Part shown: piece by piece, positions 4,955 through 63,659 of the stretch
Layout: every line of letters begins with the position of its first letter
Position numbering within the stretch: the first letter of the stretch is position 1
Source of the DNA: Thermoplasmata archaeon
GTDB lineage: Archaea > Thermoplasmatota > E2 > JACPAO01 > JAHFTW01
Length of the DNA stretch: 64,000 bases
Assembly (NCBI GenBank): GCA_034667725.1
Contig: JAXDQS010000010.1
Span: forward strand, 217,937 to 281,936
Direction of reading: 5' to 3'
The notes under the pieces: model-generated
Databases searched by the model: none
Told to the model about the DNA's origin: nothing
The model's input: the letters and a program-made list of their open reading frames with translations, nothing else
Position numbers and translations under genes: made by a program

Positions 4955-4984
4955 GGCCTCCACGCGCAGCCAAGGCCCTCGGGC

Positions 4985-6620: not shown

Positions 6621-6626
6621 GCCATC

Positions 6627-6668
6627 CACCGAGGACACCGAGACCACCGAAGTTCGGTGTCCTCGGTG
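6627..6668. terminator. Perfect 14-bp-stem hairpin between convergent orc1 and nob1
   Basis: caccgaggacaccg (6627-6640), 14-nt loop, cggtgtcctcggtg (6655-6668). Lies between two convergent stop codons. Confidence 0.4.
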
Positions 6669-6682
6669 CGCTCGGCGGATGG

Positions 6683-13004: not shown

Positions 13005-13008
13005 AGAC

Positions 13009-13223: not shown

Positions 13224-13228
13224 ATCTC

Positions 13229-19265: not shown

Positions 19266-21383
19266 ATGCGTCCAGCGATGCTGCTTCCAGCCTTGGCCCT
19301 GGTGGGCCTGGGGCTTCTCACGATGATCCCGCACGAGGCCCAGGCCCAGGCGGTCATCGACAACGGCTTCGTCCAGGTCGGCGTCCGCGCCGACGGCGCC
19401 CTCATCGCCTCCCCGGTCTCGACCGACGGCGACTGCACCGTCGTCGGCGGCGTCACGGTCTGCACCGGCGGCGCCGGCACGGGCCTGGTCGGCCTGCGCC
19501 ACATGGCCACCGGCTACGAGTCGACGGCCGACGGCTGCGCCTGCGAGACCTGGGGCGTGTCGTACGACGGCGCCGTGTCGGGCTACGCCCGCAGCGGCAG
19601 CGCCGGCCCCGGCTCCGGCCTCACGCCGGTGGCGTTCTCGAACACCGCCAGCACCGCCGTGGCCACCGTGCGCGCCGGCGACCTGCTGGTCACCCACGAC
19701 TTCCACCCGACGGCACTCACCAACGACCTGTACGAGGTCAACGTCACCATCGAGAACACCGGCCCCGCCCACGTCGACCTGCGCTACCGCCGCGCCATGG
19801 ACTGGGACATCCAGCCCACCGCCTTCAGCGAGTTCGTCACCATCGAGGCCAAGAGCCCGCTGCCGACCGCGCTGTCCTGCTCCAGCGACGACGGCTTCGC
19901 CACCGGCAACCCCCTCAGCGGCCTCGGCTCGATCCTGATGTACGGCCCCGGCTGCGGCTCCGACTTCATCGACTCCGGCCCGAGCGACCACGGCGCCGCC
20001 TTCGACTTCCACTTCGGCGTCATCGCGGCCAGCGAGAAGCGCGAGTTCCGCATCTACTACGGCGCCGCCTCCTCCGAGATCGACGCCTACGCCGCCATGG
20101 CCGCGGTGGGCGCCGGCGTCTGGACCTTCGGGCAGTGCAACCCGGGCAGCAACCCCGCCTGCGACACCAGCACGGGCGCGCCGGCCACCTTCATGTTCGG
20201 CTTCGACGACGTCGACATCATCCCGGTCAAGCCCGCCAACATCCCGCCCGTCGCCGCCGGCACCTACCTCGCCCGCACCGCCTGCGAGGACTCCCGCGTC
20301 TCGTTCGACGGGAGCAAGAGCACCGACCCCGACGGCTTCGTCCGCACCCACGCCTGGACCTTCGGCGACGGCGGCAACGCCACCGGCGAGAAGGTCGACC
20401 ACCTCTACAAGGCGCCGGGCCCCTACACCGTGACGCACACTGTGATGGACAACAACGGCGCCCTCACCACCCGCACCTTCACCATCGTGAGCGCCGGCGA
20501 CCCCGACTGCTGCCTCAACCTCAACCCGGTCCCGCCCATCGACGCGATGGAGTTCGACGCCGTCGGCTTCCTGCCCATCGTCTGGGACTTCGAGGACGGC
20601 CCCTACAGCTTCGACCTGTTCCCGCTGCCGACGGGCGCCACCTTCAACCCCGCCACCGGAGAGTTCGGCTGGCCCACCGCGGCCGGCGACGCTGGCGCCT
20701 ACACCCTCACCCTGCTGGCCACGGACGGCGGCGGCTGCACCGTCGGCACCGAGGTCGACATCGCCGTCCGCCCGTACCCGCCGCCGCTGCCGCCCGCCGA
20801 GGACCATGACCTCGACGGCATCGCCAACGCGCAGGACAACTGCCCCGACCGCGTCAACCGCGACCAGGGCGACGCCGACCGCGACGGCCTCGGCGACCTG
20901 TGCGACGACGACCCCGGCCTCACGGGCCCGGAGGCCGAGGCCGCGCGCCGGCTGCGCGCCGGCGGCGCGCGCGACCGCGACCGCGACGGGGTCGCCGACG
21001 TGGCCGACGTCTGCCCCGACGTGGCCGACCGCGACCAGAAGGACCTCGACGGCGACCGCCTCGGCGACCTGTGCGACCCGGACGCCGACGGCGACACGGT
21101 GCGCGACCAGCCCGCCGCCGGCATCCCGGCCGACAACTGCCTCCAACTGGCCAACGCGGACCAGGCCGACGCGGACGGCGACGGCGTCGGCGACGCCTGC
21201 GCCGCCGACCGCCTCGCCGCCGCCCAGGCGCGCAGCAGCGACGCCGAAGGCCGGCCCGCCGTCCTGGCCGCCGAGCAAGGCGGCCTCGGCTCGGGCGCCA
21301 AGGCGTTCATGCTGGCGTTCGCCGCCGCAGGCCTCCTGGGCCTGCTGGTGGTCTTGGCCATCCTGCGCCGCAACGAAGCGTAG
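19266..21383 (+). CDS. Surface protein with PKD domain, Ig-like domain, TSP3 calcium-binding repeats and C-terminal TM anchor
   Basis: Signal peptide; PKD motif (FDGSKSTDPDGFVRTHAWTFGDGGNATGEKVDHLYKAPGPYTVTHTV); Asp-rich DxDxDGxxDxxDNCP repeats; C-terminal AFMLAFAAAGLLGLLVVLAILRRNEA. Paralogous to 57188..59221 and 61203..63659. Confidence 0.6.
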   Translation: MRPAMLLPALALVGLGLLTMIPHEAQAQAVIDNGFVQVGVRADGALIASPVSTDGDCTVVGGVTVCTGGAGTGLVGLRHMATGYESTADGCACETWGVSYDGAVSGYARSGSAGPGSGLTPVAFSNTASTAVATVRAGDLLVTHDFHPTALTNDLYEVNVTIENTGPAHVDLRYRRAMDWDIQPTAFSEFVTIEAKSPLPTALSCSSDDGFATGNPLSGLGSILMYGPGCGSDFIDSGPSDHGAAFDFHFGVIAASEKREFRIYYGAASSEIDAYAAMAAVGAGVWTFGQCNPGSNPACDTSTGAPATFMFGFDDVDIIPVKPANIPPVAAGTYLARTACEDSRVSFDGSKSTDPDGFVRTHAWTFGDGGNATGEKVDHLYKAPGPYTVTHTVMDNNGALTTRTFTIVSAGDPDCCLNLNPVPPIDAMEFDAVGFLPIVWDFEDGPYSFDLFPLPTGATFNPATGEFGWPTAAGDAGAYTLTLLATDGGGCTVGTEVDIAVRPYPPPLPPAEDHDLDGIANAQDNCPDRVNRDQGDADRDGLGDLCDDDPGLTGPEAEAARRLRAGGARDRDRDGVADVADVCPDVADRDQKDLDGDRLGDLCDPDADGDTVRDQPAAGIPADNCLQLANADQADADGDGVGDACAADRLAAAQARSSDAEGRPAVLAAEQGGLGSGAKAFMLAFAAAGLLGLLVVLAILRRNEA

Positions 21384-30179: not shown

Positions 30180-30353
30180 CCCAGGCTTGGCCTAGGACAA
30201 CCTGGGCGCAAAGACCGCGGATTCGCCCGCCTAGGCTTGTCCCAGCCCCCCATCCCGCCCGCAACCGCGGAATCCGCGGCGAATCCCGGGGCGCGGCTTC
30301 TGCCCTTGCCGGAGGCGGCCCCGTTCAAGCCCGCCCGCACCCAAGGGGTCGGC

Positions 30354-35119: not shown

Positions 35120-35177
35120 AGGCGGGGTCGCGCCCGGCCTCCGATTTAATCATTTGCGCTCTGGGCCAGTGTTGGAC

Positions 35178-38100
35178 ATGGGCTGCAAACGGTCAAGAAG
35201 GCACGGCGGTCGCTGGGCCTTGACAATGGTCGTCCACCGCTTGTCCCCGCTCGCCGCTGCCTTCATCCTGGCAGTCTCCACCCTCGCCGCCGCGCCGGCG
35301 TCGGCCCTCATCGTCGGCCCCGTCGGCCCCATCGACCCCGACCTCATCAACGTAGACTGCGAGGACAGTGCCGCCGTTAGGGCCGCCTGCAACGCGGTGG
35401 CCACCCTCACGGAGGACCCTGGCGAGATCACCGTCGGGTGCGGCGACGGGTACGCCGGCAACGCCTGCCGCGAAGCCTTGGACACCCTCGAGGACCCGCC
35501 CGCGGCCTGCGAGGCCGTCACGTTCGCGATCTGCGAGGCGGTGGCCCGGCTGCTGGCCGACGACGGCGGCGACCCCGTCGGCCAGTGCCTGCACGACCTC
35601 GGCTTCGACACCGTCGTGATGCCCCAGCCCGGCACCAGCATCGTCAACCTGGACTGCTCGCAGCTTGGCGAGACCCTGGCGAGCCTCTACGTCATCCTGG
35701 ACAACCTGGCGGCGCGGGGCGGCGCCACCCTGAACTCCTGCCTGGCGCTGTTGGGCGACGGCATTGCCAACCTGGAGTCGAGCGGCCCGCCACTGGTGGA
35801 TTGCGAAGGCCTCGGCGAGACCGCCCGCGACACCGTCCAGGCCGCCATGGACCTGGTGGACCGCGAAGCCGACGACGCCATGCGCACCGTCGAGGCGTGC
35901 GTCTACGGCGCGCCCCCGCCGTCCGCCGGCGCCGCGCTGTGCCGCTCCCTCTACAACACGCTCGTCCTCTACCTCGCCTTCGCCGTCCAGACCGGCCTCC
36001 AGGCGGCCAACCACCAGCTTGAGTGCCAAGGCCTCGACACCGTCTCCATCACGGCGCCCGCCCCCGAGGGCGACCCGCCCGCCACCTTCGGCCTGCCGGA
36101 GGAGTGCGTGACCGCCCACCTGCTCTTGACCGCCGTCCAGGAGGCCGTCGCCAACGTGCTGCGCATCGCCGGCGACCTCGCGCCCTCCGTCTCGCTCTGT
36201 GTCGCCGAGGTCCCCGGCGGCCCCACCACCGTCACCCTCGACTGCCGCTACGTCGAGCGCGTCGTGCGCACCGTCGGCGACGCCGAGGCCACCGTCATGC
36301 TCGTCGTGCAGCAATACCTCGACGACTGCCAAGGCCGCGGCGCGCCCCCCGAGGGCCTGCCGAGCTGCCGCGAGCAGGTCGAGAACCTGCAGCGCATCGT
36401 GGACCGCAACTTCGCCGGCGCCTGGCGTGCCGCCCAGGAAGCCGCCGCCGACCTGCAGGCCTGCGCCGCGGCCGCCGCCGCGAGCACCTGCGCGGCCACG
36501 CAAGACTGCGCCCTGCTGCCCTGCGTCCTGCCCGGCGCCTGCGACACCGGCTGCGCCAGCAACGGCACCACCTCCTACCCGGCGCGCGCCAACGGCACCG
36601 CCACCGACGCCCGCATCGGCAACGTCTTCGAGTTCGTGGCCCCCGTCACGGGCGCCGCGGTCCCGGTCGACGTCCACGACTACGACGGGGACGGCATCCC
36701 CGACCTGCTGGACCCCGTCAACCTCCCCTCCGAGACCCTGCGCACGACCTCCGGCGCCGACAACCTGACGCTGCTGGACGGCCTCGGCGAGCAAGGCTTC
36801 GTCCTCTTGATCGAGCCCGGCCACCGGGAGGCCCAGCTCGTGGCCGCCGACCCGCTCGGCGTGGCCCTGTCGCTGCTGCCCGTCGAGGTGCTCGACGCCG
36901 CCACCACCCTCCAGCTTTTGGGCCAGACCCACGGCGGCCACGTCGCCGACCTGCTGGCCAGCGCCCTCAACGAGAACATGACGGTGAACGTCACCTGGGT
37001 CGTCCCGCAGCTGCCCACCGTCGTCCCCCTGCATTGGGCCGGCGGCGCCATCCCCGCCGACGGCAGCTGGCTCATGGCCCGCTCCGACCCGACCCGCCGC
37101 GTCACGTTGGCGCTCTCCGGCCTTGACGTCAAGCTGGAGGCCCCCAGCGCCAGCCACGCCAGCACCGACCCCGACCTGTCGTACCGCTGGGAGTTCCTCA
37201 ACCTCTGGGGCAAGAAGGGCTTCTGCTTCGACCCCACCACCTACACCGGCGGCACCGGCCAGTGCGAAGGCAAGGCCGAGCCCGGCTGGCTGCGCGCCTA
37301 CAGCGGCCGCGCCCACTACGCCCTCCAGGCCGTCGCCGAGAACCTGGAGCGCGGCCTGTCCGACCTGGCGGCGACCCCGGCGGGCACCAACGGCACCGCC
37401 CTGGAGCCCATCCTGGCGCCGACCGAGGGCCTGCGCGGCGACGAGGTCCCCGCCGACGCCATCGACCTGTTCGACCCCTCCTCGCTGGTGCACGCCATCG
37501 GCGACAACAGCACCTCGTTCCCGCCCGGCGTCGGCGTCGACTACCAGGTCCCGGCCCGCGAGCCGCGCTCCCTGCCGCGCCCCGCCATCCTGCAAGCCCC
37601 CGACGCCCTGCTCACGACCGACGTGGACCTGTCGGCCTACCGCCCGACGCGCACCTTCCGCTTCGACGCCCAGTTCTACGAGACCCCCGGCACGCCGCGC
37701 GACCTGCAGCTGCTGACGCTGCACATCACGCCGGCCGACGGCAACGACGCCGCCCAGACCTTCGTGCTCGACGGCCGCGCCTTCACGGAGTACCTGCGCC
37801 TGCTGCCCGGCGAGCAGCTCGCCCTCGATATCGACGCCGATCACTTGGACGGCTTCGTCCAGGTCTCCAAGGACGTCAACGCCGACGGCTGGGAGGACCT
37901 CGTCGTGCAGGTGCCCCACTTCAGCACCGTCACCATGGACGTCCACAGCGACAACTCGATCGCCTACCCCATGTGGACCATGGTCAAGATGACCAGCGCC
38001 ACCGAGGGCTGGCTCACCGGCCCTTACGGCGCCATGTACAAGTACAGCGCCGGCCGCGTCTACCGTCACGACATCCCCGGCCTCGCGGGCCAGATGCGCT

Positions 38101-41100
38101 CCATCGCGCTGCACGTCGTCGGCCCCAACGACGTCTGGGTGGCGGGCGACGGCGACTGCAACCTCGCCGACCCGTCGCCGTTCATCGCCCACTACTACTA
38201 CGGCAGCTGGAGCATCTTCCGCACGTCGCAGGTCGGCCCCGGCTGGGCCTGCGAGGGCTTCATCACCATCTGGATGGACCCCACCGGCTCCTTCGGCTAC
38301 GCGGGCGGCACCGACGGCATGTGGTTCAAGTACGCCAGCGGCGCGTGGAACCCCGCCCCCAGCCCCGCGCCCGGCGCCTGCGTCCGCGACATCGCCTTCG
38401 ACAGCAGCGGCCGCGGCTACGTCGGCGCCAACACCGACTTGTGCCTGGCCAGCGGCCGCCCCGCCATCAGTTACTGGGACGGCAGCTCGTGGAGCAGCCA
38501 CAGCACCTACGGCAGCACCGAGATCTGGAGCGTCATGGACGGCTCCGGCCAATGGGCCGCCGCCATTCCCAAGGACCCGGCCACCCACGGCATCCTGCAA
38601 CAGTCCGGCTCGTCCTGGTCCCTCGCCTCCGTCCCCGTTCCGGCGGGCCATTACTACGGCATGACGCGCGCGCCCGACAGCCGCCTCTGGTTCAGCGCCA
38701 CCGACCGCAGCAACCGCGGCTTCCTGGTCGAACGCGACCCGTCCGGCACCTGGACGACGCACTGGTTCCAGACCCGCATCGGCTTCCTGCGCGACGTCTC
38801 GATGTCGTCCAGCACGGCGGGCCTCGTCGTCGGCGACAAGAACATCCTGGCCATCCAGGTCTCGTCGGCCGCCGCCGCCTCCGCCGACTGGATCTGGGAC
38901 AGCCTGTCGCCGACCTCCGGCACCACCAGCACGACGTTCGCCGGCCGCGACTCCGGCACCCGCGACCCCGACAGCGGCAGCGGCACCGTCGCGCACACCT
39001 GGAACTGGGGCGACGGCTCGGCCAACGACCTGGCCGCCAACGCCGACCACGTCTACCAGGCGCCCGGCACCTACGCCGTCACCCACCAGGTGCGTGCCAG
39101 CAGCACCGGCCAGGCCAACGCGCACGGCTGGACCGTCACGGTGAACCCCCAGTCCACCAGCATCGGCCCCAGCACCTCGGACTCGCTGCCCGCCGGCACC
39201 CGCGTGGCCCCGAAGTACTACCAGTACACCAACGCGGCCAGCGACGGCCAGGCGCATGACTTCCGCGTCGTGCTCGGCGGCGCTGCCGGCGTCAAGATGA
39301 CGATCCGCAAGGGCACCGGCATGGGCGACTTCAGCGCCGGCGGCAACTGGCCCAACTACGGCGCCGCCGGCCGCGACCTGTCCGGCCCCATCGCCTACGG
39401 CCAGTCCATCACCATCCGGGTCGAGCAGGACACCAGCGTGAGCCCCTACGGCGGCTCCTACACCCTCACGGTGACGCAGCTGCCGCCCCCGCCCAACCCG
39501 GCCTTGAGCAGCCTGGTGCCGCAGCCGATGGAGGCGCTGACCCGCGGCTACGAGGAGCTGACGTTCCGCGTCACCTGGACCGACACGCAAGGCTACCAGC
39601 CCCGCGACGCCAGCGGCGCCACCAGCCCGCCCACCATCACGCTGGACACCAACGGCGACGGCGCCCTGGAGACCTACTCCATGCACCTGGACCGGCCGCT
39701 GTTCACCGGCTCCACCTACAAGGCGATCTACTCGTACTCGACCTACCTCAAGGAAGGCAGCGGCACCCAGCCGATCTACAAGGCTTGGGACACGCAGCCC
39801 TACCAGCAGGTCGCCACCGGCGCCTGGATCTACGCCCGCGCCACCGTCCTCAAGGCCTACGACTTCGAGGCCGACGCCGTCGACCGCCTCCCGGCAGGCT
39901 TCGCCAACGTCCCGCTGGCCGGCCACCCGGTGAGCTACTGGCACGTCACCGACACCGCCAAGGCGGGCACGCCCGACCGCGTCGCCTTCGGCGCGCACGG
40001 CAAGGCCCTCTGGTTCGGCCAGGAGTCCTCCGGGAACTACGTCGACGCCGACGGCCGCGCCCCGGGCGGCGCCCTCGAGACGCCGGTGCACGACCTGAAC
40101 CGCATGGACAAGCCGGTGCTGTCGTTCGCGTCGCTCTACGAGACCCAGGACGACGGCAGCAGCATCGACGTCAAGCAGGTCCACATCAAGGCCCGCGACC
40201 CCGGCGGCGTCTGGGGCGGCTGGGTGCTGCTGCAGGCCGTCCACGGCCCCGGCTTCCTGCCCGGCCGCTGGAACACCGTGGCCGCCAGCCTCGCCGACTA
40301 CGCCGGCAAGGAGGTCGTGCTGCGCTTCCAGTTCCAGGCCGACAACGCCAACAACGGCTACCTCGGCTGGTACGTCGACGACATCGTGCTCGGCAGCGAC
40401 GCCGACGGCGACCTGATCCCCGACCTGAAGGAGGCCAACCGCGTCATCGGGCTCCGCAACGGCGCCGTCGGCCCCGTCAACGTCGCCCCCGGCCAGACCG
40501 GCGCCAGCTACGTCAACCGCGTCAGCACCTCCGGCTTCCAGGGTGTCGTCGCCGAGGCCGTCCTCTACTCCGAGCGGCCGCAGGACCTGCGCGTCGAGCT
40601 GCTGGTGCCGCCGGCGGGCACGCTCCCCGGCGACTTCCCCGCGCTCACGACCGAATTCCGGCCGTTCAAGCTGAACCCGGCCGCGGCGCCCGCCACCGAC
40701 ACGGTGTGCGGCGTCACCAGCCCGGTGCGCAACTCCCTGTCGCCCTGGTACGCGACCTACCCGAACCTGCTCTTGGACCCCGCCACCGGCTTCGACAACC
40801 CCCGCATCGGCGGCGGCTTCGGCCCCGACTCGCGCCCGACCGTCGTGCCGATCCACGCCCTGGAGTTCAAGCGGGTCGACGGCGTCGGCCTTGCCATCAA
40901 GGCGGACCTCACCGAATGCCTCAAGGCCGCCGGCTTGAGCGAGTTCGGCGTCCACGACGTCGTGCTGCGCGTCCAGAACACCGCCGCCTCCGGCACCGCG
41001 ACCATCGAGTCGTTCGCGGTCACCGGCGTCGGCCGGTCGTCGATGTTCAGCGCCCGCAGCGCCGCCATCGGCATGGGCGACTACCGCGCCAGCGACGGCG

Positions 41101-42806
41101 GCTGGCTGGGCGGCGGCACGCCGCTGGGCCCCGACGCCGACTGGGACGGCATGGCGCGCGGCGAGGACGGCAACGACATGGTGCCGACCTACGTGCCGTT
41201 GGTCTTCGTCGACTACAACAAGCCCGAGGAGGGCCTGCAGTTCGCCCTCGACAGCAAGCGCGTCGTGCTGTCCGTCGACATCCTGGCCACCACCGGCACC
41301 ACCACGCGCGACGTCGCGACCCCGGTGGCCCAGGCCTACGGCGAGTGGCGCAACTACGTCCTGCCGGCCAGCCGGTTCGCCGGCGCCGACAGCCTGCGCA
41401 TCGTCGTCAGCCTGGCCGGCGGCTCGGTCATGACCATCGAGGCGGCCTTCAAGGACCGCCAGCCGCAGCTGGCCAGCCTCACCGAGTCCTTCCTGGCCGA
41501 CCCCGGCAACCCCTCGCCGGAGCCTGGCAGCCACTACCTGACCGACGCCGAGCGCAACCTCGGCTACATCATGGGCGGCGCCAAGGCCCTCTACTGGGTC
41601 TACAAGGCGGGCAAGCTCATCACGGGCGTCGGGGCCGCCGAGACCGCCCTCGAAGGGGCCACCCTGGTCGTCAAGACCGTCGGCAAGTGGGCCATCGTCA
41701 AGGTCGCCAAGGAGGGCCTCAAGTCGGCCTACGCCTCCAGTGGCGAGCTCACCATCTACGAGAAGACCTCGCGCCACAACATCTACAAGGGCCGGACCTC
41801 GCGCGGCGACTACCCCGAGGTCTACGACCTCTTGGACGAGGCCATCACCAACGCCCAAGGCCCGTACCCCACCATCGGCGGCAACAACGTCTGGTTCTAC
41901 GAGAAGGCGGTGGACCCGTCGACGGGCGCCATCGCCAAGCTCTACGTGCTGGAGACCCGCCAGGACGGCGACCTGTTCCGCGGCTGGGGCCACTCGCTTG
42001 CCAGCTGGGGCCAGATGGTGTCGCGGCCCTACACGGCCGGCGCGGACGCCAACACCGTCCACGCCACCGACGTCTCGGACATCCAGAGCATCGAGCGGCT
42101 GGCCAAGGTCGCCGGCCCGTACCCGAGCTTCGGGAGCTTCCTGTGCGCCGTCACTTGCTATGCCGAGGTGGACGGCGACCCCGGCCGCGTCCACCTGCAA
42201 GCCTACGGCGTCAACTGGGACAACCGCCACGACAGCAAGCTCGACGTCGACGCCGGCTGGGTCACGGCGGCGCGCTACGCCGCCTACCGCCCGAACTCGT
42301 GGGTGCCTTCCATCAACGAGGGCCAGCGCGACCTCCAGCTCGCGGGCTGGATCCGGTCGTACCGCTTCATCCACGACAACGGCGTCCACGCCTCGGCCTC
42401 GCAGGACGCGAAGGCCTTCTGGGGCGACGACTACGCCTCGAACCCAGGATGCGCTGCCGAGACCACGCGCCGCTGCCAGGCGCCGACCGCGACCTTCGAC
42501 GGCCACGGCGTCTTCGCCCAGGGCTTCACCCTGCGCTGGACGACCTCGTCGAGCCCCACGGTCCTCAAGACCGACAAGGCGGCCAGCTTCGGCCTCTACA
42601 CCAACTCCGACCGCGGGCCCTGGGATGGCCGCTCCGGCATCGAAAAGAGGCGCGACACCCTGGCGACGTCGCTCGGCACCCCGGGCTCCGGCCATGACGC
42701 GAACCTCATCCTGGCGCTCGACGCCAGCGGCGCCACCTGGGAGGACGACCACTACTACCCAGAGTACGGCCCGCACACCTTGGAGGAGTTCTACGACGTC
42801 CCGTAG
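35178..42806 (+). CDS. Giant secreted multidomain protein (~2540 aa)
   Basis: Single uninterrupted frame. Signal peptide, Cys-rich helical N-terminal ~450 aa, propeller-like W/Y/G-rich repeats, a PKD-like domain (TVAHTWNWGDGSANDLAANADHVYQAPGTYAVTHQV), a GWYVDDIVLG motif and a ~600-aa K/Y/I-rich C-terminal module. The antisense ORF is low-complexity. Confidence 0.7.
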   Translation: MGCKRSRRHGGRWALTMVVHRLSPLAAAFILAVSTLAAAPASALIVGPVGPIDPDLINVDCEDSAAVRAACNAVATLTEDPGEITVGCGDGYAGNACREALDTLEDPPAACEAVTFAICEAVARLLADDGGDPVGQCLHDLGFDTVVMPQPGTSIVNLDCSQLGETLASLYVILDNLAARGGATLNSCLALLGDGIANLESSGPPLVDCEGLGETARDTVQAAMDLVDREADDAMRTVEACVYGAPPPSAGAALCRSLYNTLVLYLAFAVQTGLQAANHQLECQGLDTVSITAPAPEGDPPATFGLPEECVTAHLLLTAVQEAVANVLRIAGDLAPSVSLCVAEVPGGPTTVTLDCRYVERVVRTVGDAEATVMLVVQQYLDDCQGRGAPPEGLPSCREQVENLQRIVDRNFAGAWRAAQEAAADLQACAAAAAASTCAATQDCALLPCVLPGACDTGCASNGTTSYPARANGTATDARIGNVFEFVAPVTGAAVPVDVHDYDGDGIPDLLDPVNLPSETLRTTSGADNLTLLDGLGEQGFVLLIEPGHREAQLVAADPLGVALSLLPVEVLDAATTLQLLGQTHGGHVADLLASALNENMTVNVTWVVPQLPTVVPLHWAGGAIPADGSWLMARSDPTRRVTLALSGLDVKLEAPSASHASTDPDLSYRWEFLNLWGKKGFCFDPTTYTGGTGQCEGKAEPGWLRAYSGRAHYALQAVAENLERGLSDLAATPAGTNGTALEPILAPTEGLRGDEVPADAIDLFDPSSLVHAIGDNSTSFPPGVGVDYQVPAREPRSLPRPAILQAPDALLTTDVDLSAYRPTRTFRFDAQFYETPGTPRDLQLLTLHITPADGNDAAQTFVLDGRAFTEYLRLLPGEQLALDIDADHLDGFVQVSKDVNADGWEDLVVQVPHFSTVTMDVHSDNSIAYPMWTMVKMTSATEGWLTGPYGAMYKYSAGRVYRHDIPGLAGQMRSIALHVVGPNDVWVAGDGDCNLADPSPFIAHYYYGSWSIFRTSQVGPGWACEGFITIWMDPTGSFGYAGGTDGMWFKYASGAWNPAPSPAPGACVRDIAFDSSGRGYVGANTDLCLASGRPAISYWDGSSWSSHSTYGSTEIWSVMDGSGQWAAAIPKDPATHGILQQSGSSWSLASVPVPAGHYYGMTRAPDSRLWFSATDRSNRGFLVERDPSGTWTTHWFQTRIGFLRDVSMSSSTAGLVVGDKNILAIQVSSAAAASADWIWDSLSPTSGTTSTTFAGRDSGTRDPDSGSGTVAHTWNWGDGSANDLAANADHVYQAPGTYAVTHQVRASSTGQANAHGWTVTVNPQSTSIGPSTSDSLPAGTRVAPKYYQYTNAASDGQAHDFRVVLGGAAGVKMTIRKGTGMGDFSAGGNWPNYGAAGRDLSGPIAYGQSITIRVEQDTSVSPYGGSYTLTVTQLPPPPNPALSSLVPQPMEALTRGYEELTFRVTWTDTQGYQPRDASGATSPPTITLDTNGDGALETYSMHLDRPLFTGSTYKAIYSYSTYLKEGSGTQPIYKAWDTQPYQQVATGAWIYARATVLKAYDFEADAVDRLPAGFANVPLAGHPVSYWHVTDTAKAGTPDRVAFGAHGKALWFGQESSGNYVDADGRAPGGALETPVHDLNRMDKPVLSFASLYETQDDGSSIDVKQVHIKARDPGGVWGGWVLLQAVHGPGFLPGRWNTVAASLADYAGKEVVLRFQFQADNANNGYLGWYVDDIVLGSDADGDLIPDLKEANRVIGLRNGAVGPVNVAPGQTGASYVNRVSTSGFQGVVAEAVLYSERPQDLRVELLVPPAGTLPGDFPALTTEFRPFKLNPAAAPATDTVCGVTSPVRNSLSPWYATYPNLLLDPATGFDNPRIGGGFGPDSRPTVVPIHALEFKRVDGVGLAIKADLTECLKAAGLSEFGVHDVVLRVQNTAASGTATIESFAVTGVGRSSMFSARSAAIGMGDYRASDGGWLGGGTPLGPDADWDGMARGEDGNDMVPTYVPLVFVDYNKPEEGLQFALDSKRVVLSVDILATTGTTTRDVATPVAQAYGEWRNYVLPASRFAGADSLRIVVSLAGGSVMTIEAAFKDRQPQLASLTESFLADPGNPSPEPGSHYLTDAERNLGYIMGGAKALYWVYKAGKLITGVGAAETALEGATLVVKTVGKWAIVKVAKEGLKSAYASSGELTIYEKTSRHNIYKGRTSRGDYPEVYDLLDEAITNAQGPYPTIGGNNVWFYEKAVDPSTGAIAKLYVLETRQDGDLFRGWGHSLASWGQMVSRPYTAGADANTVHATDVSDIQSIERLAKVAGPYPSFGSFLCAVTCYAEVDGDPGRVHLQAYGVNWDNRHDSKLDVDAGWVTAARYAAYRPNSWVPSINEGQRDLQLAGWIRSYRFIHDNGVHASASQDAKAFWGDDYASNPGCAAETTRRCQAPTATFDGHGVFAQGFTLRWTTSSSPTVLKTDKAASFGLYTNSDRGPWDGRSGIEKRRDTLATSLGTPGSGHDANLILALDASGATWEDDHYYPEYGPHTLEEFYDVP

Positions 42807-55681: not shown

Positions 55682-56671
55682 CTAGAGCAGGCCCGCCTTC
55701 TGCAGCGTCAGCAGGTCCTCGGTGGAGAGCTTCTCGCCCTTCTTGAAGCGCTGGAACACCATCTCCGCCGCCGCCTCGTTCTTGGCCTGGGTGGCCGCCG
55801 AGGGCTGCCCGCCGCCGTGCTGGCCGGTGGCGTCCTCGATCTCGTGGATGGCGTTGACGAACTGGATGTACGTCTTGTGAATCTCGTCCGCCTCCATCTT
55901 GGCGACGACGAACTTCTCCTGGAGCTTGTCCGCCTTCTTGCGGAGCTTGTCGGACTCCTTGTAGAGCTTGATCATGGCGTCGTGCTCCGACTGGGCCTTC
56001 TCCGCCATCTCGCCGACCTTGGCGTGCGCCTTCTCGGCCTTCTCCTTGAGCTCCTCCGCCTTCTCCAGGCTGGCCTTCAGCTCGGGGTCGGCGCGCAGCA
56101 GCTTCTCCTTCTCGCGGATGAGCTTGCCGATCTCCTTGAGGCGCTCCATCAGCGCCTTCTCCTTGGCGACCGTCAGCACCGAGGTCATCTGCTGGAACTC
56201 GAGCTGCTTGGCCTCCTTCTTGAGCTTCGCGACCGTCAGGGTGGCGTCGCCCTCGGGCATCCGGGTGCGCCGCAGCACCTCCGCGGACTTCTGCGCCTCG
56301 TCGGCCGCCCGGTTGGCCTCGTCCCGCAGCTCCTTCGAGCGCTTGACGCCCTCGTTCATCTCGTCGCGGCGCTTCTTGTGCTCGTTGGCCTGGTTCACGA
56401 GCCCGCGGACCTCTGCGTTGTAGGTGTCGCGCTCCTCGGCGTGCTTGCGCGCCTCGTCGTTGAGGCGGTCGCGCTCGCGCCGGAGCATGTTGGCGCGGCT
56501 CTGGAGGTCCTCCTTCTTCATGCCGGGCTTGGGCCCGTTGGGGTTCGGCTTGGGAGGCTCGGGGGTCGCCTCGACGGGGGCGGCCGCGGTCTCGGTCTCA
56601 GGGGCTTCGGGCGCGGGGGGCGACTCGGGCGCCGGCGGCGCCGCCGAGGCCACATCGGTGGTCTCACTCAT
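55682..56671 (-). CDS. Archaeal coiled-coil protein
   Basis: ~330 aa. Pro/Ala-rich N-terminus, long K/E/R-rich heptad region, conserved-looking C-terminus (VFQRFKKGEKLSTEDLLTLQKAGLL). The ORF-track frame extends antisense through the next gene and is a run-on. Confidence 0.55.
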   Translation of the reverse strand: MSETTDVASAAPPAPESPPAPEAPETETAAAPVEATPEPPKPNPNGPKPGMKKEDLQSRANMLRRERDRLNDEARKHAEERDTYNAEVRGLVNQANEHKKRRDEMNEGVKRSKELRDEANRAADEAQKSAEVLRRTRMPEGDATLTVAKLKKEAKQLEFQQMTSVLTVAKEKALMERLKEIGKLIREKEKLLRADPELKASLEKAEELKEKAEKAHAKVGEMAEKAQSEHDAMIKLYKESDKLRKKADKLQEKFVVAKMEADEIHKTYIQFVNAIHEIEDATGQHGGGQPSAATQAKNEAAAEMVFQRFKKGEKLSTEDLLTLQKAGLL

Positions 56672-56832
56672 GGTCCAGTCACCAGGATGGGCGTTCGCAC
56701 AAGGGCCCCCTAGATAACGGGTGCGGCTGAGGAGGGCACCATAATCCCCGCGCCCTAACGGTGCATGAGGGGACAGAAGGAGGATGTAGGCGGCAAAAAG
56801 GTGGCCAAAATGTGCTACGGTGCCGCCGATTC

Positions 56833-56897
56833 CCACAGAACTCTGTGGAATTTTGGCTAGGCCTGCCAAATCAATGTCGAGGTCTGTGGAATCTGTG
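56833..56897. promoter_or_regulatory. Cluster of TCTGTG/CACAGA hexamers (dyad plus direct repeats) in a divergent promoter region
   Basis: CCACAGAacTCTGTGG palindrome at 56833-56848 and TCTGTGgaaTCTGTG at 56883-56897, in a relatively AT-rich island. Confidence 0.3.
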
Positions 56898-57154
56898 TCC
56901 AGTCGGCGGTGCGCGACGGGCCAGCGGCTCCAGGCGACCTGCACGGCCTTCGGTCCAACCCCCCTCGTGCCGCGCCACCGTCTCCGCGTACAGCTCCAGC
57001 TGCCGCAACAGCCGCCCGGCCGTGCCATGCGACAGGCCGCCCCGTTCGCGCCCCGCCCCCCCAACCTCGCGCGTGGCCCCAGCAACGGGAACCCCAAGCC
57101 CAAGGCCGAAAGTCGTAGCCGGCCCGCTGTCCGCCCAGGACGCCGCCTGCAATG

Positions 57155-57162
57155 CTTTATTT
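57155..57162 (+). promoter_or_regulatory. TATA-like box (within hairpin CCTGCAAtgctttatTTGCAGG), leaderless spacing to the ATG at 57188
   Basis: ctttattt centred ~30 nt upstream of the ATG that begins the signal peptide. Confidence 0.35.
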
Positions 57163-57187
57163 GCAGGACAGGGTGGTGACGCCCAGA

Positions 57188-59221
57188 ATGACATCGTCTG
57201 CCGCCTGGGCCGCCTTCGGCGTCCTGGCCGCCCTTGCCGCCACCGGCATCGTCCTGTTGGCGACCCCCGCCGAGGCCGCGGTCATCCTGGAGCCGGCCGG
57301 CCCGCTGGAGCAAATCCACATCTCGCGCTCCAAGACGCTCGACTGCCAGGTGATGTACATCGGCACGGTGTACAGCTTCCCCGGCAGCGAGGCGGACGGC
57401 GAGTTCTGGGGCGTCGGCTCGGGCTCGTGCGGCACTTTCCTGCACGTGGTGGGCGACCAGACCTACGGCCCGCCGGTCGAAGGCTACGGCCCGCCCTACA
57501 TGGCGGGCGGCATCCCGCCCACGCCCTACACGCCCGTCAGCCAGGTCGGCCCCACCGGCACCGGCACCGTCGCGGACCCGTGGACCATCGACACGGTGGC
57601 GCGCGCCGTCGGCCCCGGCACCTTGGTCGAGCTGCACCAGGTGGACGAGTACGTCAAGGGCGACGAGTACTACACCACCACCGTCACCGTCAGCAACCTC
57701 GGCGCCGCCGCGGTGGACCTCATCCTCTACCGCGCCGGCGACTGCTACCTCACCACCACGAGCGCGGACCCCGACTCGGGCTACGGCTACCTCGACGTCG
57801 CCAACCACACCGTGGCCTGCACCGAGACGCCCGGCGGCGCCACCGGCCGCATCATCGAGTGGGTGCCCCTCACGCCCGGCGCGCACGCCGAGCACAACGA
57901 GTGGGACGACATCTGGATGCGCCCGATGTACGGCGACGAGATGGCCGACACCTGCCTGTGCGCCACGTTCCTCGACAACGGCGCCGGCCTGAGCTGGGCG
58001 TTCAGCCTCGGCGTGGGCCAGGACAAGACCTACGCCAACAACAACGTGTTCTCGCCGACCGGCGTCCCGCCGCCCCCCGACCCGGACGTCCCGCCCGTCG
58101 CCCGCGCCACCGCCGCCCCCGGCGAGCGCACCTGCTTCTCGGCGCCGTTCTTCTTCAGCGGCACGGCCTCCACCGACTCCGACGGCACCATCGTCTCCTA
58201 CCTGTGGGACTTCGGCGACGGCTCCCCCGTCGGCGCGGGCGCCACCACCAGCCACGACTACCCCGCCGCCGGCACCTACACCGTGCGCCTCACGGTGACC
58301 GACGACGACAAGCTTGCGCACACGGTCACCTTCACCATCACGAGCCTCGGCGACACCGACTGCCCGTTCACGCTGCGGGTGTTCGACTCGACGGTGCGCG
58401 AGGGCGCCCTGCTGCGCTTCTGCATCCAGGCCGAGGACCTCGACGGCGGCGCGTTCACCTACGCCGCGACCTACCCCGGCGGCCTGCCGGCCGGCCTCGA
58501 GTTCGATGTCGCCGGCTGCCTCGACTGGACCCCCGCCCAAGGCCAGGCCGGCAAGTACGACTGCCTCACCTTCACGGCCATGCAGGGCGGCGGCCCCACC
58601 GGGGCGCCGTTCCAGACCGCCACCGACTGCGCCACCATCACCGTCGTGGCCGTCCCGCCCGTCCAGGCGACCGACGACACCGACATGGACGGGGTCGCCG
58701 ACGAGGCCGACAACTGCCCGTCGCACGTCAACCGCGACCAGGCCGACAGCGACCGCGACGGCCCCGGCGACGCCTGCGACCCCGTGGCGCCGCAGGCCCG
58801 CGACCCCAGCGTCCCGACGCGCAACCTCGCCGGCCCCGGCGACCAGGACGGCGACCGCGTCGCCGACCGCCTCGACAACTGCCCGGAGCGCCCGAACGCC
58901 TCGCAGGACGACCGCGACCGCGACGGCCTCGGCGACGGCTGCGACCCCGACGAGGACGGCGACGGCATCATCGTCGGCGGCCCCTTCACCGACAACTGCC
59001 CGCTCGCGGCGAACCGCGACCAGGCCGACGCCGACCGCGACGGCGTCGGCGACGCCTGCGACCTGGCCGGCGTGACGGCCGCGTTCGTGCCCGCGCGCGG
59101 CAACGAGCCCGCCCTGCACTCCGCCCGCGCCGGCCCCTCCGTGTGGCCGTGGGTCGCGGCGGCGGCGCTGGGCGCGCTGGCCGCGGCGGCCTTGGTGGCG
59201 GTCGTGCGCCGGCGGGCCTAG
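57188..59221 (+). CDS. Surface protein with PKD domain, Ig-like domain, TSP3 repeats and C-terminal TM anchor (paralogue 2)
   Basis: Signal peptide MTSSAAWAAFGVLAALAATGIVLLATPAEA; PKD motif (YLWDFGDGSPVGAGATTSHDYPAAGTYTVRLTV); CPxT...RFC Ig-like region; DxDxDGxxDxxDNCP repeats; C-terminus GPSVWPWVAAAALGALAAAALVAVVRRRA. Confidence 0.6.
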   Translation: MTSSAAWAAFGVLAALAATGIVLLATPAEAAVILEPAGPLEQIHISRSKTLDCQVMYIGTVYSFPGSEADGEFWGVGSGSCGTFLHVVGDQTYGPPVEGYGPPYMAGGIPPTPYTPVSQVGPTGTGTVADPWTIDTVARAVGPGTLVELHQVDEYVKGDEYYTTTVTVSNLGAAAVDLILYRAGDCYLTTTSADPDSGYGYLDVANHTVACTETPGGATGRIIEWVPLTPGAHAEHNEWDDIWMRPMYGDEMADTCLCATFLDNGAGLSWAFSLGVGQDKTYANNNVFSPTGVPPPPDPDVPPVARATAAPGERTCFSAPFFFSGTASTDSDGTIVSYLWDFGDGSPVGAGATTSHDYPAAGTYTVRLTVTDDDKLAHTVTFTITSLGDTDCPFTLRVFDSTVREGALLRFCIQAEDLDGGAFTYAATYPGGLPAGLEFDVAGCLDWTPAQGQAGKYDCLTFTAMQGGGPTGAPFQTATDCATITVVAVPPVQATDDTDMDGVADEADNCPSHVNRDQADSDRDGPGDACDPVAPQARDPSVPTRNLAGPGDQDGDRVADRLDNCPERPNASQDDRDRDGLGDGCDPDEDGDGIIVGGPFTDNCPLAANRDQADADRDGVGDACDLAGVTAAFVPARGNEPALHSARAGPSVWPWVAAAALGALAAAALVAVVRRRA

Positions 59222-59274
59222 GCCGGCAGCCCCCGGCGACAACCGTTAAGGGCGAAGGCCGCCGTCGGCCGCAT

Positions 59275-61202: not shown

Positions 61203-63659
61203 TTGTCGCTTGGTCGGTGGCTGCTTGCCCTTGGGCTCGTGCTGCTCGGCGTCGCCGTGGCCGTCGAGGCGCGCGAGTACTGGACGGCCGACCTGCCGAC
61301 CTTCTGCGGCACCAAGGGCCCCACCATCGACCTCCTGAACCCGTCCCCCACGATCGCCACCGCCACCGTCACCACGGAAGGCATCTCGACGGTCTACGTG
61401 GTGCTGCCCGACTCGGCCTTCGTGATCAAGCCCGCGTCCCCGATCCCAGGCAGCGGCATCGGGGTCGCGGGCGTCTACCACATCGACACCGGGACGGGCC
61501 CTGTCGTGCCCCTGCTGGCCGGCGACGAGGTGCCGTCGTGCGGCGACGCCAACCGCATCCTGCCCACCGACGCCTTGGGCACCAACCACGTCCTCCACAC
61601 CTTCCCCGCGACCACCTACGCCACCGACCGCTCGTTCTTCACGGTCATCGCCACCGAGGACGACACCACCGTCGGCATCTTCCTGCAAGGCACCCCGACG
61701 ACGCCGGGCGGCGGCCTGCCTCCCATGGTCCCCGGCGTCAGCTACTCCTACGTCCTTGCCCGCGGCGTCGCGCTCACCGCAGTCTCCGGCCCCTCCACGG
61801 TGCTGGCGATGGCGGCGTTCGACGGCACCAACATCGTCTCCGACAAGCCCGTGAGCGTCTGGTCCGGCAACTTCCACAGCACCTACGGCATGGCCTCCGG
61901 CGGCGCGGACCAGATCTGGAACCAGCACCCGCCCACGCGGCTGTGGGGCACCGAGTACGTCGCCTGCTCCACCCTGGACCCGATGGTGCGCGCCAGCGGC
62001 ACCGAGCGGCTCCGGTTCGGCAACGCGTTCGTCCCGGCCACCGTCACCTTGGACCCGCCTCCCGTGGGCGCGGCAAGCGGCGTCTACGCCCTCGCCGCCA
62101 ACGCGTGGCTGGAGGTCAACGTCGACAGCAACACCCGCATCACCTCGACCGAGCCGATCCAGGCGCTGCACATCATGGTCCCCGACTCGCCGCCGCCGCT
62201 CGGCGACGTCGACATCCTGCCGCTGGCGCCGACCTCGCTCTGGACCGAGGAGCACCTGCTCTACGCCTCGCCCAACTACCCCGTGCGCCACCTCGCCATG
62301 GTGGTCCCGGCCGGCGGCGCCGCGGCGCTCGACGGCACCCTGGTCACGGGCGGCACCCCGGTCGGCGCCTCCGGCTACCGGTGCGCGCTCCAGCCGGTGG
62401 CGGCCGGCCTGCACCGCGTCACCGGCACCCAGCCGCTCGGCAACTGGATGATGGGCCAGACCCCGTTCTCCGGCTCCTACTGGTACGAGGACGCCGGCCT
62501 CCCCAAGGTGCTGCCGCCTCCGCCGCCGCCCCCGCCGCCCCGCCCGCCGGTGGCGGTGCCGGCCGTGGCCGGCGCGGGCACGAGCTGCGTGGACAGCGCC
62601 GTGCTGCTCACCGGCATCGCCTCGTTCGACCCCGACCTCGGCGGCACGGTCGTGGCGTGGGCGTGGGACTTCGGGGATGGCGTGAAGGGCGCCGGCAAGA
62701 CCGTCGCGCACGAGTACGCGCTCGCCGGCGATTACACCGTCACCCTCACCGTCACCGACAACGACGGCATGACGCACACGGCCACGCTCCTGGTCCACGT
62801 CGCCGTCGACGCCGACTGCCCCGCCACCCTCGTCACCGGCCATTCCTTGGTGCGCGAGCGCGACACCGTCCGGTTCTGTGTTGCCGCCAGCGACCCCGAC
62901 GGCGGCCCCTTCACCTTCACCCTCGCCTGGCCCGACGGCGAGCCCGCCGGCGTCACCTTCACGCCCGACGGCTGCCTCAGTTGGCGCACCTCCGTCGGCC
63001 AGGCCGGCTTCTACCCGTGCCTGCTGTTCACGGCCCTCGGACCCGGCGGCCCCGTGGCCGGCTGCGCCACCGTCGAGGTGCTGCCGTGGCCCCGCCCCGA
63101 TCCGACCCTCGACACCGACCTCGATGGCGTGGCCGACACTCAGGACAACTGTCCTTACGACGCCAACCGCGACCAGGCGGACGACGACCTCGACGGCCTC
63201 GGCGACCTGTGCGACCCGACGCCCCTGCGGCGCGACCTCGCCAATCCCGGTCCCGAACGGCTTGGCCGCGCCCGCGACGCCGACCGCGACGGCATCGCCG
63301 ACCCCGCCGACAACTGCCCGCTGGCGCCCAACACCTCGCAGGCCGACCGCGACCGCGACGGCGCCGGCGACGCCTGCGACCCGGACGCCGACGGCGACGG
63401 CGTCGCGACGGCGGGCGCGTTCCCCGACAACTGCCCCGACGCCGCCAACCCCGACCAGCGCGACGCCGACGCCAACGGCCACGGCGACGCCTGCGACGCC
63501 GCCGCGCCCGCCGCGCCGCGCGCCCTGGCGCGCGGCCGCGAGGCGGCGGCGTCGGTCGGCGGCGGCGCGCCGTGGGCCGTGGCGGCCGTCGGGCTGGGGG
63601 CGGCAGCGCCCCTGCTGGCGTGGGCCGTCGTGCGCCGCAAGTTCGCTGCCAAACCTTAA
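61203..63659 (+). CDS. Surface protein with PKD domain, Ig-like domain, TSP3 repeats and C-terminal TM anchor (paralogue 3)
   Basis: Probable TTG start giving a signal peptide (LSLGRWLLALGLVLLGVAVAVEA); PKD motif (AWAWDFGDGVKGAGKTVAHEYALAGDYTVTLTV); CPATL...RFC region; TSP3 repeats; C-terminus GAPWAVAAVGLGAAAPLLAWAVVRRKFAAKP. Confidence 0.55.
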   Translation: MSLGRWLLALGLVLLGVAVAVEAREYWTADLPTFCGTKGPTIDLLNPSPTIATATVTTEGISTVYVVLPDSAFVIKPASPIPGSGIGVAGVYHIDTGTGPVVPLLAGDEVPSCGDANRILPTDALGTNHVLHTFPATTYATDRSFFTVIATEDDTTVGIFLQGTPTTPGGGLPPMVPGVSYSYVLARGVALTAVSGPSTVLAMAAFDGTNIVSDKPVSVWSGNFHSTYGMASGGADQIWNQHPPTRLWGTEYVACSTLDPMVRASGTERLRFGNAFVPATVTLDPPPVGAASGVYALAANAWLEVNVDSNTRITSTEPIQALHIMVPDSPPPLGDVDILPLAPTSLWTEEHLLYASPNYPVRHLAMVVPAGGAAALDGTLVTGGTPVGASGYRCALQPVAAGLHRVTGTQPLGNWMMGQTPFSGSYWYEDAGLPKVLPPPPPPPPPRPPVAVPAVAGAGTSCVDSAVLLTGIASFDPDLGGTVVAWAWDFGDGVKGAGKTVAHEYALAGDYTVTLTVTDNDGMTHTATLLVHVAVDADCPATLVTGHSLVRERDTVRFCVAASDPDGGPFTFTLAWPDGEPAGVTFTPDGCLSWRTSVGQAGFYPCLLFTALGPGGPVAGCATVEVLPWPRPDPTLDTDLDGVADTQDNCPYDANRDQADDDLDGLGDLCDPTPLRRDLANPGPERLGRARDADRDGIADPADNCPLAPNTSQADRDRDGAGDACDPDADGDGVATAGAFPDNCPDAANPDQRDADANGHGDACDAAAPAAPRALARGREAAASVGGGAPWAVAAVGLGAAAPLLAWAVVRRKFAAKP

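Follow-up and report, generated by a model that had tools for sequence, protein, structure and literature searches.

Why a long spacer between two divergently transcribed archaeal genes should carry an AT-enriched island with repeated TCTGTG motifs, and what this island represents, are the questions raised by the 64-kb stretch of DNA studied here (referred to below as the window). The spacer separates a gene encoding a coiled-coil protein of the DUF7121 family from a gene encoding a surface protein with PKD, He_PIG and TSP_3 domains, and the first-pass annotation had described it as a divergent intergenic region with repeats consistent with the operator of a dimeric transcription factor. Both flanking genes were found to be as described and the reading as a divergent promoter region was supported. 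The TCTGTG hexamers were found to be pieces of a ~10-nt unit, (G/A)ATTCCACAGA, three to four copies of which are present in the island. We estimate at roughly 0.6-0.65 the probability that this island is a decayed member of a dispersed nonamer-repeat family.

Organization of the AT-enriched island

The island extends from approximately position 56740 to 56920, where the GC content reaches a minimum of 50% (in 80-nt windows) as compared with 72% for the window overall; it is one of six such spots in the window. The AT enrichment, the palindrome and the direct repeats noted in the first-pass annotation were all confirmed, the strings CCACAGAacTCTGTGG and TCTGTGgaaTCTGTG occurring at 56833-56848 and 56883-56897, respectively. 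The 10-mer TCTGTGGAAT is present in two exact copies, at 56842 and 56883, i.e., 41 bp or about four helical turns apart. The palindrome and the direct repeat turned out to be parts of a larger dyad, in which GATTCCCACAGAACTC (56828-56843) pairs with GAGGTCTGTGGAATC (56879-56893): the arms match at 14 of 15 positions with one bulge, forming an interrupted 66-bp palindrome.

The hexamer TCTGTG is depleted in the window (6 copies found vs. 20.8 expected). Of these copies, four are located at 56834-56897. All three copies of TCTGTGG present in the window are inside the island, and none occur elsewhere in the 64 kb. In sequences shuffled at the composition of the island, three copies of the 7-mer were obtained in 1.2% of the cases and a duplicated 10-mer in 0.45%, vs. 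29 and 9%, respectively, when the whole GC-rich spacer was shuffled. The significance of the repeats therefore depends on the null model, and the local statistics are suggestive but not in themselves overwhelming.

The RNA fold of the 116-nt island (56785-56900) gave z-scores of -4.4 (plus strand) and -3.6 (minus strand), and the DNA fold gave a z-score of -3.0; the fact that the two strands fold almost equally well is the behavior expected of a DNA palindrome. The value of -4.4 would also be consistent with a structured plus-strand RNA of ~65-105 nt, which would start at ~56788, comprise the first hairpin of the island and the CCACAGA/TCTGTGG hairpin, and end either at the T-run at 56851-56854 or after the long hairpin. 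A hairpin followed by AATTTTGG was flagged as terminator-like, and a promoter-type box is located ~25 nt upstream of 56788. However, in its promoter sense this box belongs to the opposite strand, the number of terminator-like structures is within chance (1 found vs. 0.6 expected), no Rfam match was obtained, and since the sequence is not conserved in the relatives, it provides no support from covariation. The nearly equal folding of the minus strand is again what a DNA palindrome would give, and an RNA gene at this position seems very improbable.

A family of dispersed nonamer repeats

Metagenomes were scanned for the two arms of the island with 30-60 nt between them (GATTCC[N]ACAGA...TCTGTGGAATC, 22 specified bases). 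At least 120 loci with at least 84 distinct sequences were found to match, where the naive expectation was a few. The metagenomes concerned are from soil, lake, sludge and gut, and the GC content of the loci ranges from 33 to 71%. Among the matches listed, the arm continues with TT in 79% (6% expected), and in 71% an additional C[AG]C[AG] core follows directly on the outer side. The interiors of the loci differ from each other, which means that they are not copies of a single element. A typical locus reads AACCACA-GATTCCACA-GATTNCACA-GATT ... AATC-TGTGNAATC-TGTGGAATC-TGTGGTT, and the underlying grammar consists of tandem 8-nt cores, CAC(A/G)GATT, separated by one or two variable bases and arranged in two inverted arrays. 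The perfect stems have a median length of 17 bp and a maximum of 61 bp, and about one quarter are flanked by runs of A or T. Complementarity between the arms amounts to 74-80% at the variable positions and 89-93% in the cores.

The elements lie between unrelated genes (citrate synthase, UxuA/GNAT, glutamate dehydrogenase and RNase HII are among the neighbors), in many cases immediately behind a stop codon or in the gap separating two convergent genes. Some genomes carry several copies, such as locus L065 with three mutually non-identical copies in 14 kb. A named example is present on plasmid pHALHY01 of Haliscomenobacter hydrossis (NC_015511.1, 4057-4132; positions 2490-2585 of fetched locus L146), directly downstream of a histidine-kinase gene, and its fold has a z-score of -11. 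Searches in a plasmid collection gave no match for the archaeal-type element or for a second bacterial-type element.

The family has no Rfam entry. Searches of the literature with sequence strings returned primers or nothing, and keywords led only to the paper on HuH transposases and repetitive extragenic palindromic (REP) sequences, as a lead, so that no description of the repeat was found in the searchable literature. The family appears to be undescribed, and its phylogenetic breadth unusual. Hairpin-capable inverted arrays which are located at gene boundaries and have cores constrained in sequence are compatible with a REP-like element bound by a putative sequence-specific protein, which in bacteria might also act as a bidirectional terminator. 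A viral or mobile origin was considered but gained no support: no matches to the arm pattern were found in viral contigs and no transposase motifs in the fetched loci.

The same grammar in related archaea

The source organism is an archaeon belonging to the Thermoplasmatota, and the locus is single-copy; the analysis covered 64-69 kb of this genome. The window lies on a 369-kb metagenome contig of JGI (3300044738, Ga0467041_0000015). The window contains archaeal genes (DUF7121, L7Ae, S28e, L24e, a thermosome subunit, NAC, Orc1/Cdc6), its GC content at third codon positions is 0.95-1.0, and the closest matches of the DUF7121 protein are encoded in metagenome-assembled genomes of Thermoplasmatota (70-82% identity). 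Twenty related loci were retrieved via this protein, and the related archaeal loci together amount to ~190 kb; L003, L004, L007 and L148 denote fetched loci of related Thermoplasmatota.

A detector was used which required at least two abutting CAC(A/G)GATTN units at a period of 9-10 bp. In the window it picked out a single array, namely CACAGATTCCACAGACCT at 56880-56897 on the minus strand, vs. none in 30 shuffled sequences; this array corresponds to one arm only of the island. The same detector identified elements in the four archaeal loci named above (Table 1). Their units read CACG(G/A)ATT, and their folds have z-scores of -3.2 to -6.1. In the L004 element, the variable positions are mismatched between the arms and the cores are paired, which points to a constraint on the cores themselves. 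The L007 and L004 regions were found not to be syntenic when the presence or absence of the L007 element was compared. Two of the four elements (L007 and L148) are located just upstream of redox genes, encoding an AhpC/TSA peroxiredoxin and a thioredoxin-reductase-like Pyr_redox_2 protein, respectively, although this number is too small for any conclusion to be drawn.

The arms of the island are identical to the most typical unit of the bacterial arrays, and the 15-mer TCTGTGGAATCTGTG which they contain is the characteristic junction between two units. The island is intergenic, its inverted arms are able to form a hairpin, and its own lineage carries such elements. There are several points on the other side. 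Only one pair of units abuts in the island, the others being followed by GAAC, GAGT or GACC and not by GATT, and the usual AACCAC...GTGGTT ends of the family are missing, the flanks reading GCCGCC/GATTCC and GGAATC/TGTGTCC. A profile built from eight archaeal arms failed to detect the island (nhmmer --max, E>10), although this model, which is 30 nt long and of the CACG[GA]ATT type, has low power. The family was found by seeding with the arms of the island, which means that the resemblance is partly built in, and inverted repeats are over-represented in genomes, so that the raw number of matches overstates the significance. Lastly, the family has no known function and membership alone gives no mechanism. 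It is in the light of all these points that the probability of membership given above was set. The window contains one to three candidate elements of this kind in 64 kb.

Alternatively, the repeats might be a local accident, in which a 41-bp slippage duplication and a chance palindrome arose in a decaying spacer and the match with the bacterial arrays is a coincidence. The repeat counts are not unusual when the whole spacer is shuffled, the profile of the relatives misses the island, and the spacer overall looks like junk. By contrast, the shuffles at island composition gave P-values of 0.005-0.012, the arms, with the 15-mer mentioned above, reproduce the unit most typical of a large repeat family, and the same grammar occurs within the same archaeal lineage. 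We therefore consider an accident rather improbable and retain family membership as the preferred reading.

A further spacer in the window, which follows the UvrB gene (30211-30290), contains CGCGGATT-type units in inverted orientation (ACCGCGGATTCGCC ... AACCGCGGAATCCGCGGCGAATCCCGGGG), like the L007 element. It was weakly matched by the archaeal-arm profile (E 0.6-5) and is possibly a further member of the family.

Comparison with known repeat and box systems

REP sequences and bacterial interspersed mosaic elements (BIMEs) of Escherichia coli and the REPINs of Pseudomonas are bound by RAYT transposases of the Y1-HuH type (PMC3116915, PMC6006769). Like these elements and the miniature inverted-repeat transposable elements (MITEs), the nonamer repeats are short, intergenic and hairpin-forming. 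They lie beside genes which are not related to each other, frequently follow a stop codon directly or separate convergent genes, and can be present more than once in a genome. They differ in that REP families are specific to a species or genus and consist of one imperfect palindrome with a 5' guide of the GTAG type, whereas the family described here is made of tandem nonamers. The unit CAC[AG]GATTN recurs at loci of 33-71% GC in both domains, and copies in the same genome are not nearly identical, unlike those of REP. No RAYT, transposase or Y1-HuH motifs were found in the ~1 Mb of fetched loci, and no target-site duplication of the flanking bases was seen at the repeat loci.

The units also resemble DnaA boxes, the consensus of which is TT[AT]TNCACA (PMC6006769): both are 9-mers that are variable at their fifth position and have CACA at the 3' end (GATTNCACA vs. 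TTWTNCACA). Among the matches listed, 13 of the 167 flanking 9-mers are perfect or one-off DnaA boxes, vs. 0.06% in the background, the perfect outermost boxes being TTATCCACA and TTGTCCACA; this enrichment follows largely from the conserved CACA alone. Unlike arrays of DnaA boxes, the nonamer units differ at positions 1-2, abut with a period of 9-10 bp and form palindromes, and the arrays are located at gene ends and not at oriC, with no dnaA or dnaN gene nearby. To our knowledge, archaea do not have DnaA, and the nonamer arrays are nonetheless present in archaea. The units also bear a likeness to the parS half-site of ParB (GTTNCAC), to BoxA of P1 (ATTTCAC) and to the Noc site (ATTTCCC).

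One group of Y1-HuH proteins, described as 'TnpA subclass 2.1 / RAYT group 1', is widespread, carries a DnaA-C-like domain and has no known partner repeat (PMC6006769). It is conceivable, although we consider the idea highly speculative, that the CAC(A/G)GATTN palindromes are an undescribed class of elements of Bacteria and Archaea, in which a conserved DNA-binding module recognizes DnaA-box-like cores. The DnaA-domain-IV-like helix-turn-helix of the Y1-HuH subclass 2.1 would be a candidate for this module, and the island (56828-56897) would be an archaeal instance, either co-opted or decaying, within a promoter region.

Operator and replication origin as alternative readings

According to the operator reading, the TCTGTG dyad and the direct repeats would bind a dimeric or multimeric archaeal transcription factor whose target would be either of the two flanking genes or an internal promoter. 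In a variant of this reading, the AT patch AAATCAAT (56868-56875) would be a TATA box, with the direct repeat between the box and the start of transcription and the palindrome ~30 bp upstream. The island does contain a symmetric site with a 16-bp palindrome, a 10-mer direct repeat and 15-bp arms; the spacing of the 10-mers by about four helical turns (41 bp) and the locally significant clustering are likewise as expected. An AT patch located between repeats would suit the classic geometry of archaeal repressors, which is a conjecture from the sequence alone, and the cores of the wider family look constrained in sequence, which would suit binding by a protein. The dyad and direct repeats in a divergent spacer and their helical-phase spacing are features shared with the archaeal divergent-promoter operators of the Lrp, TrmB, MarR and ribbon-helix-helix (RHH) types.

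Archaeal operators are however found beside the TFB recognition element (BRE) and the TATA box, whereas the motif cluster is ~115-180 bp away from the TATA box of the DUF7121 gene and ~260-320 bp away from the TATA box (TTTATTT) of the surface-protein gene, i.e., outside a range of ~50 bp. The motif is absent upstream of 13 DUF7121 orthologs and two surface-protein homologs, no regulator gene is adjacent, and the same grammar occurs beside unrelated genes in other genomes. There is no further copy in the 64 kb despite the presence of at least four other surface-protein genes. The proposal of a dimeric operator for the two genes flanking the spacer was thus weakened, as was the expectation that the motif would recur upstream of other surface-protein genes, TCTGTGG preceding none of them within the window. 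In the light of these data, an operator dedicated to the two genes is unlikely. The further surface-protein genes of the window, none of which has TCTGTGG upstream, include those at 19290-21383 (a paralog with the same PKD/He_PIG/TSP_3 architecture), 35226-42806 and 61233-63659.

The possibility that the island might be an origin element bound by Orc1/Cdc6, i.e., a cluster of origin recognition boxes (ORBs) or mini-ORBs beside an AT-rich unwinding zone, was also considered. The string TTCCACAG resembles the core of an ORB (TCCACAGGAAAC in Aeropyrum), and the units are inverted in an AT-enriched patch. However, the orc1/cdc6 gene (5249-6523) is 51 kb away and has its own canonical ORB and G-string, the pattern of which the island fails to match. 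There is no initiator gene near the island and no switch in GC skew, and the element is absent at this locus in the relatives. This reading was rejected when the orc1/cdc6 gene with its own ORB was found, and its probability is close to nil.

The probable replication origin of the window is located at 4955-6523, where the orc1/cdc6 gene is preceded by an ORB-like box with a G-string, GGTTCCACCGGAAGCAAGGGGGTC (5060-5083). Further features of the spacer upstream of orc1/cdc6 are another dyad, TTTTCCGCTCATCGGAAG (5013-5030), and, at 5100-5112, a small AT patch.

Probable promoters and gene starts at the edges of the spacer

The genes in this neighborhood encode the DUF7121 protein, a 122-aa protein without any Pfam match, a TtuA-like protein, an S15 peptidase and surface proteins, and the spacer is the largest gap between segments with a coding signal in the window. 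In the relatives, the corresponding spacer is 124-156 bp long and the divergent neighbor is an S15 peptidase or a surface protein. The sole stretch which can be aligned with the relatives consists of ~49 nt beside the ATG of the DUF7121 gene (76-80% identity). It includes GTTATnTAGGGG, 40-47 nt before the ATG, and GGTGA, 8-12 nt before it, both of which are invariant or nearly so in 13 sequences and are probably the TATA-type box and the ribosome-binding site of this gene.

The divergent neighbor gene of the relatives has a box, CAACCGTTAAG, ~28 nt before its ATG. The same type of box, ACAACCGTTAAGGGCG, is present at 59239-59254 in front of the S15 peptidase gene of the window (ATG at 59275), which directly follows the surface-protein gene. 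The box shared by the S15 peptidase genes and the shortness of the orthologous spacers suggest that the surface-protein gene and the ~350 extra bases of the spacer are lineage-specific additions between two conserved promoters. For two homologs of the surface protein encoded elsewhere, with identities of 41 and 39%, the upstream spacer measures 61 and 55 bp, respectively. The boxes CGCCCTAACGGTG (56751-56763) and ACAACCGTTAAGGGCG are inverted copies of each other, with 13 matches and two 1-nt gaps, and flank a 2.5-kb lineage-specific segment consisting of the island, the GC-rich DNA and the surface-protein gene; their likeness may be just that of a common promoter consensus, CCGTTA(n)AGGG.

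On the right-hand side of the spacer, the inverted repeat in which the first-pass annotation had placed a hairpin-embedded TATA box is indeed present, but the hairpin is not beyond chance (P=0.32 in spacer shuffles, fold z-score -1.9). The box itself, TTTATTT, fared better. It is located at -32 to -26 from the ATG at 57188, and when the 70 nt upstream of ~40 called starts were examined in the window and in the related contigs, in many genes of the lineage the sole AT-rich box was found 26-35 nt ahead of the start codon: TTAA in the case of the S15 peptidase, TTATAA in that of the L148 homolog (41% identity), and TTTTTAT, TTTTAT, TATAA and AAATAT in others. This distance points to leaderless or near-leaderless mRNAs, and TTTATTT is therefore a credible TATA box of the surface-protein gene, the mRNA of which would start approximately at the ATG at 57188. 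Its position resembles that of boxes in archaeal TATA/BRE promoters of leaderless mRNAs (-35 to -26 in this lineage), from which it differs in that an SD-like (Shine-Dalgarno-like) GGTGA is present between the box and the ATG. This GGTGA lies 8 nt before the ATG, close to the 7-nt spacing in the DUF7121 gene, although it would fall outside a leaderless transcript.

In the public annotation, the surface protein begins with the ATG at 57152 and has 689 aa, vs. 677 aa from the ATG at 57188. No comparable AT box occurs at a fitting distance before the former, and the start at 57188 is favored because of the geometry of the AT box and the signal-peptide-like N-terminus. A gene encoding a giant surface protein of 2526 aa (35226-42806 region) has an AT box, TTTAATCATTT (35142-35155), ~30 nt before an ATG at 35178.

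Coding and RNA signals in the remainder of the spacer

The first-pass annotation had found no convincing open reading frame (ORF) in the spacer, and this was upheld by codon statistics and two exhaustive protein searches. None of the frames of the spacer has a coding score (best values -0.17 to -0.5 bits/codon vs. 0.71+-0.24 for true frames). A small protein encoded by a 107-aa minus-strand ORF (56871-57194) was tried on account of its weak GC3 periodicity and a stretch looking like a helix-turn-helix (HTH), and was rejected: it has no Pfam match and no coding score, and no homolog was found in an index of 5.8 billion proteins or, using exhaustive HMMER searches, among 1.84 billion representatives. 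A pseudogene of a neighbor or relative was likewise rejected, as blastx against all the proteins of the window and the fetched loci and blastn against all the loci gave no match. The spacer had no match in the plasmid collection either.

The suggestion that the GC-rich remainder might encode a small RNA did not hold up. The 256 nt to the right of the island gave no fold signal (z-scores of +0.57 and -0.39 vs. shuffles), and the whole spacer folds no better than shuffled sequences. Rfam 15 gave no matches at the gathering score in the whole window, and only chance-level matches at E<=10 in 56400-57400; the scan for signal recognition particle (SRP) RNA and RNase P RNA was negative at both thresholds. 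No tRNAs were found, and no C/D-box motifs were visible by eye.

Table 1. Location of the spacer, its components and flanking genes in the window, and of the elements in related archaeal loci (positions in the loci named).
Feature	Position	Strand	Remarks
Divergent intergenic spacer	56672-57187	.	Non-coding; ~350 bp longer than the spacers of relatives
DUF7121 coiled-coil gene	55682-56671 (ATG 56671-56669)	-	Left neighbor; spacer begins at 56672
DUF7121 core promoter and leader	56679-56721	-	CCCGTTATCTAGGGG (56721->56707), probable TATA-type box; Shine-Dalgarno GGTGA (56683->56679), 7 nt before ATG
Second promoter-type box	56751-56763	-	Putative; CACCGTTAGGGCG read on minus strand; relatives have CAACCGTTAAG at the equivalent place, facing the divergent gene
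Hairpin 1 of island	56789-56827	.	GGCGGCA...TGCCGCC; in minimum-free-energy and centroid folds, both strands
Interrupted palindrome	56828-56897	.	Units (G/A)ATTCC(C)ACAGA; includes every TCTGTG motif of the first-pass annotation
Left unit	56828-56839	+	Unit (G/A)ATTCC(C)ACAGA
Inverted units	56842-56852, 56883-56893; partial abutting unit 56892-56900	.	Unit (G/A)ATTCC(C)ACAGA
Nested hairpin	56852-56870	.	TTTGGC-TAGGCCT-GCCAAA
GC-rich (~76%) orphan non-coding DNA	56900-57140 (~240 bp)	.	No detectable function
TATA-like box TTTATTT	57156-57162	+	Within inverted repeat CCTGCAA/TTGCAGG, CCTGCAAtgctttatTTGCAGG at 57146-57167
SD-like GGTGA and probable true start	57175-57190	+	GGTGA 57175-57179; ATG 57188
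PKD/He_PIG/TSP_3 surface-protein gene	from ATG 57188 (probable start)	+	Right neighbor; signal-peptide-like N-terminus
Archaeal element	L003 8650-8722		After Hel308-type helicase gene
Archaeal element	L004 283-362		Before short-chain dehydrogenase gene
Archaeal element	L007 2600-2710		Divergent spacer between HTH protein gene and AhpC/TSA peroxiredoxin gene
Archaeal element	L148 3055-3115		Directly after homolog of the surface-protein gene of the window

Other inverted repeats in the window

The whole 227-bp spacer between the convergent genes encoding a NAC-domain protein and an amino-acid permease (13003-13229) is one long imperfect inverted repeat, with the arms AGAGACGATTTCAAAATTCCAAG(T)GGCCTGCG and CGCAGGCCTTCTTGGAATTTTGAAATCATCTCT and a GC-rich structured interior. 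Its RNA fold has z-scores of -8.9 (plus strand) and -10.6 (minus strand), and no Rfam match was obtained. It shares with the island the 10-mer TGGAATTTTG (three copies in the window vs. 0.33 expected) and AGGCCTGC; the units of its arms, ATTNCAAR repeated every 8 nt, have the appearance of a nonamer-grammar variant. This spacer is a candidate non-coding RNA, repeat element or bidirectional terminator.

In the region 6485-6682, a copy of the last ~35 nt of orc1/cdc6 (GTGCAGCACAAGCCGAAGAAGCAGCATCGTCTGAC, 6485-6519), with 5 nt inserted, is present at 6581-6620 and is followed by a long hairpin (CCATCCACCGAGGACACCGA...TCGGTGTCCTCGGTG...GGCGGATGG) abutting on the stop codon of a PIN-domain gene.

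Interpretation of the locus

We give about even odds to an overall explanation in which an ordinary divergent promoter region of archaea has been enlarged, specifically in this lineage, to give a spacer with four components. The left edge would be the conserved promoter of the DUF7121 gene, with its TATA-type box and its GGTGA ribosome-binding site, and at the right edge TTTATTT would start the leaderless or near-leaderless mRNA of the surface-protein gene near the ATG at 57188. In the middle, the ~110-nt hairpin-capable, AT-enriched island would be the decayed copy of a CAC(A/G)GATTN inverted-array repeat, maybe broken up by the duplication of a 41-bp segment which the two exact copies of TCTGTGGAAT delimit: deleting one copy thus bounded would restore a compact palindrome of two plus two units, which would fit a slippage duplication. 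The remaining 240 bp would be GC-rich orphan DNA with no detectable function. If the island acts at all, it would presumably do so via its own properties and not as an operator dedicated to both genes: it could form a hairpin or a cruciform, its 8-nt cores probably offer a sequence-specific site for a putative protein, and read-through could be stopped on the plus strand by a hairpin with a T-run behind it. The data establish the anatomy of the spacer, its pattern of conservation, the lack of coding and known-RNA signals, and the existence and grammar of the repeat family; the homology of the island with this family, the assignment of the promoters and any function are inferred.

As far as the locus is concerned, the result is mostly deflationary, since it amounts to two ordinary promoters, spacer DNA without any detectable function and the relic of a repeat. 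In terms of annotation, the start of the surface-protein gene would be better moved to the ATG at 57188, and no operator or RNA gene call is warranted here. The wider finding is that intergenic hairpins of high-GC Thermoplasmatota and of widely differing bacteria are built with the same nonamer grammar. Should these elements share a binding factor or a means of mobility, they would be a rare case of a non-coding element spanning both domains, which would also account for many unannotated terminator-like hairpins.

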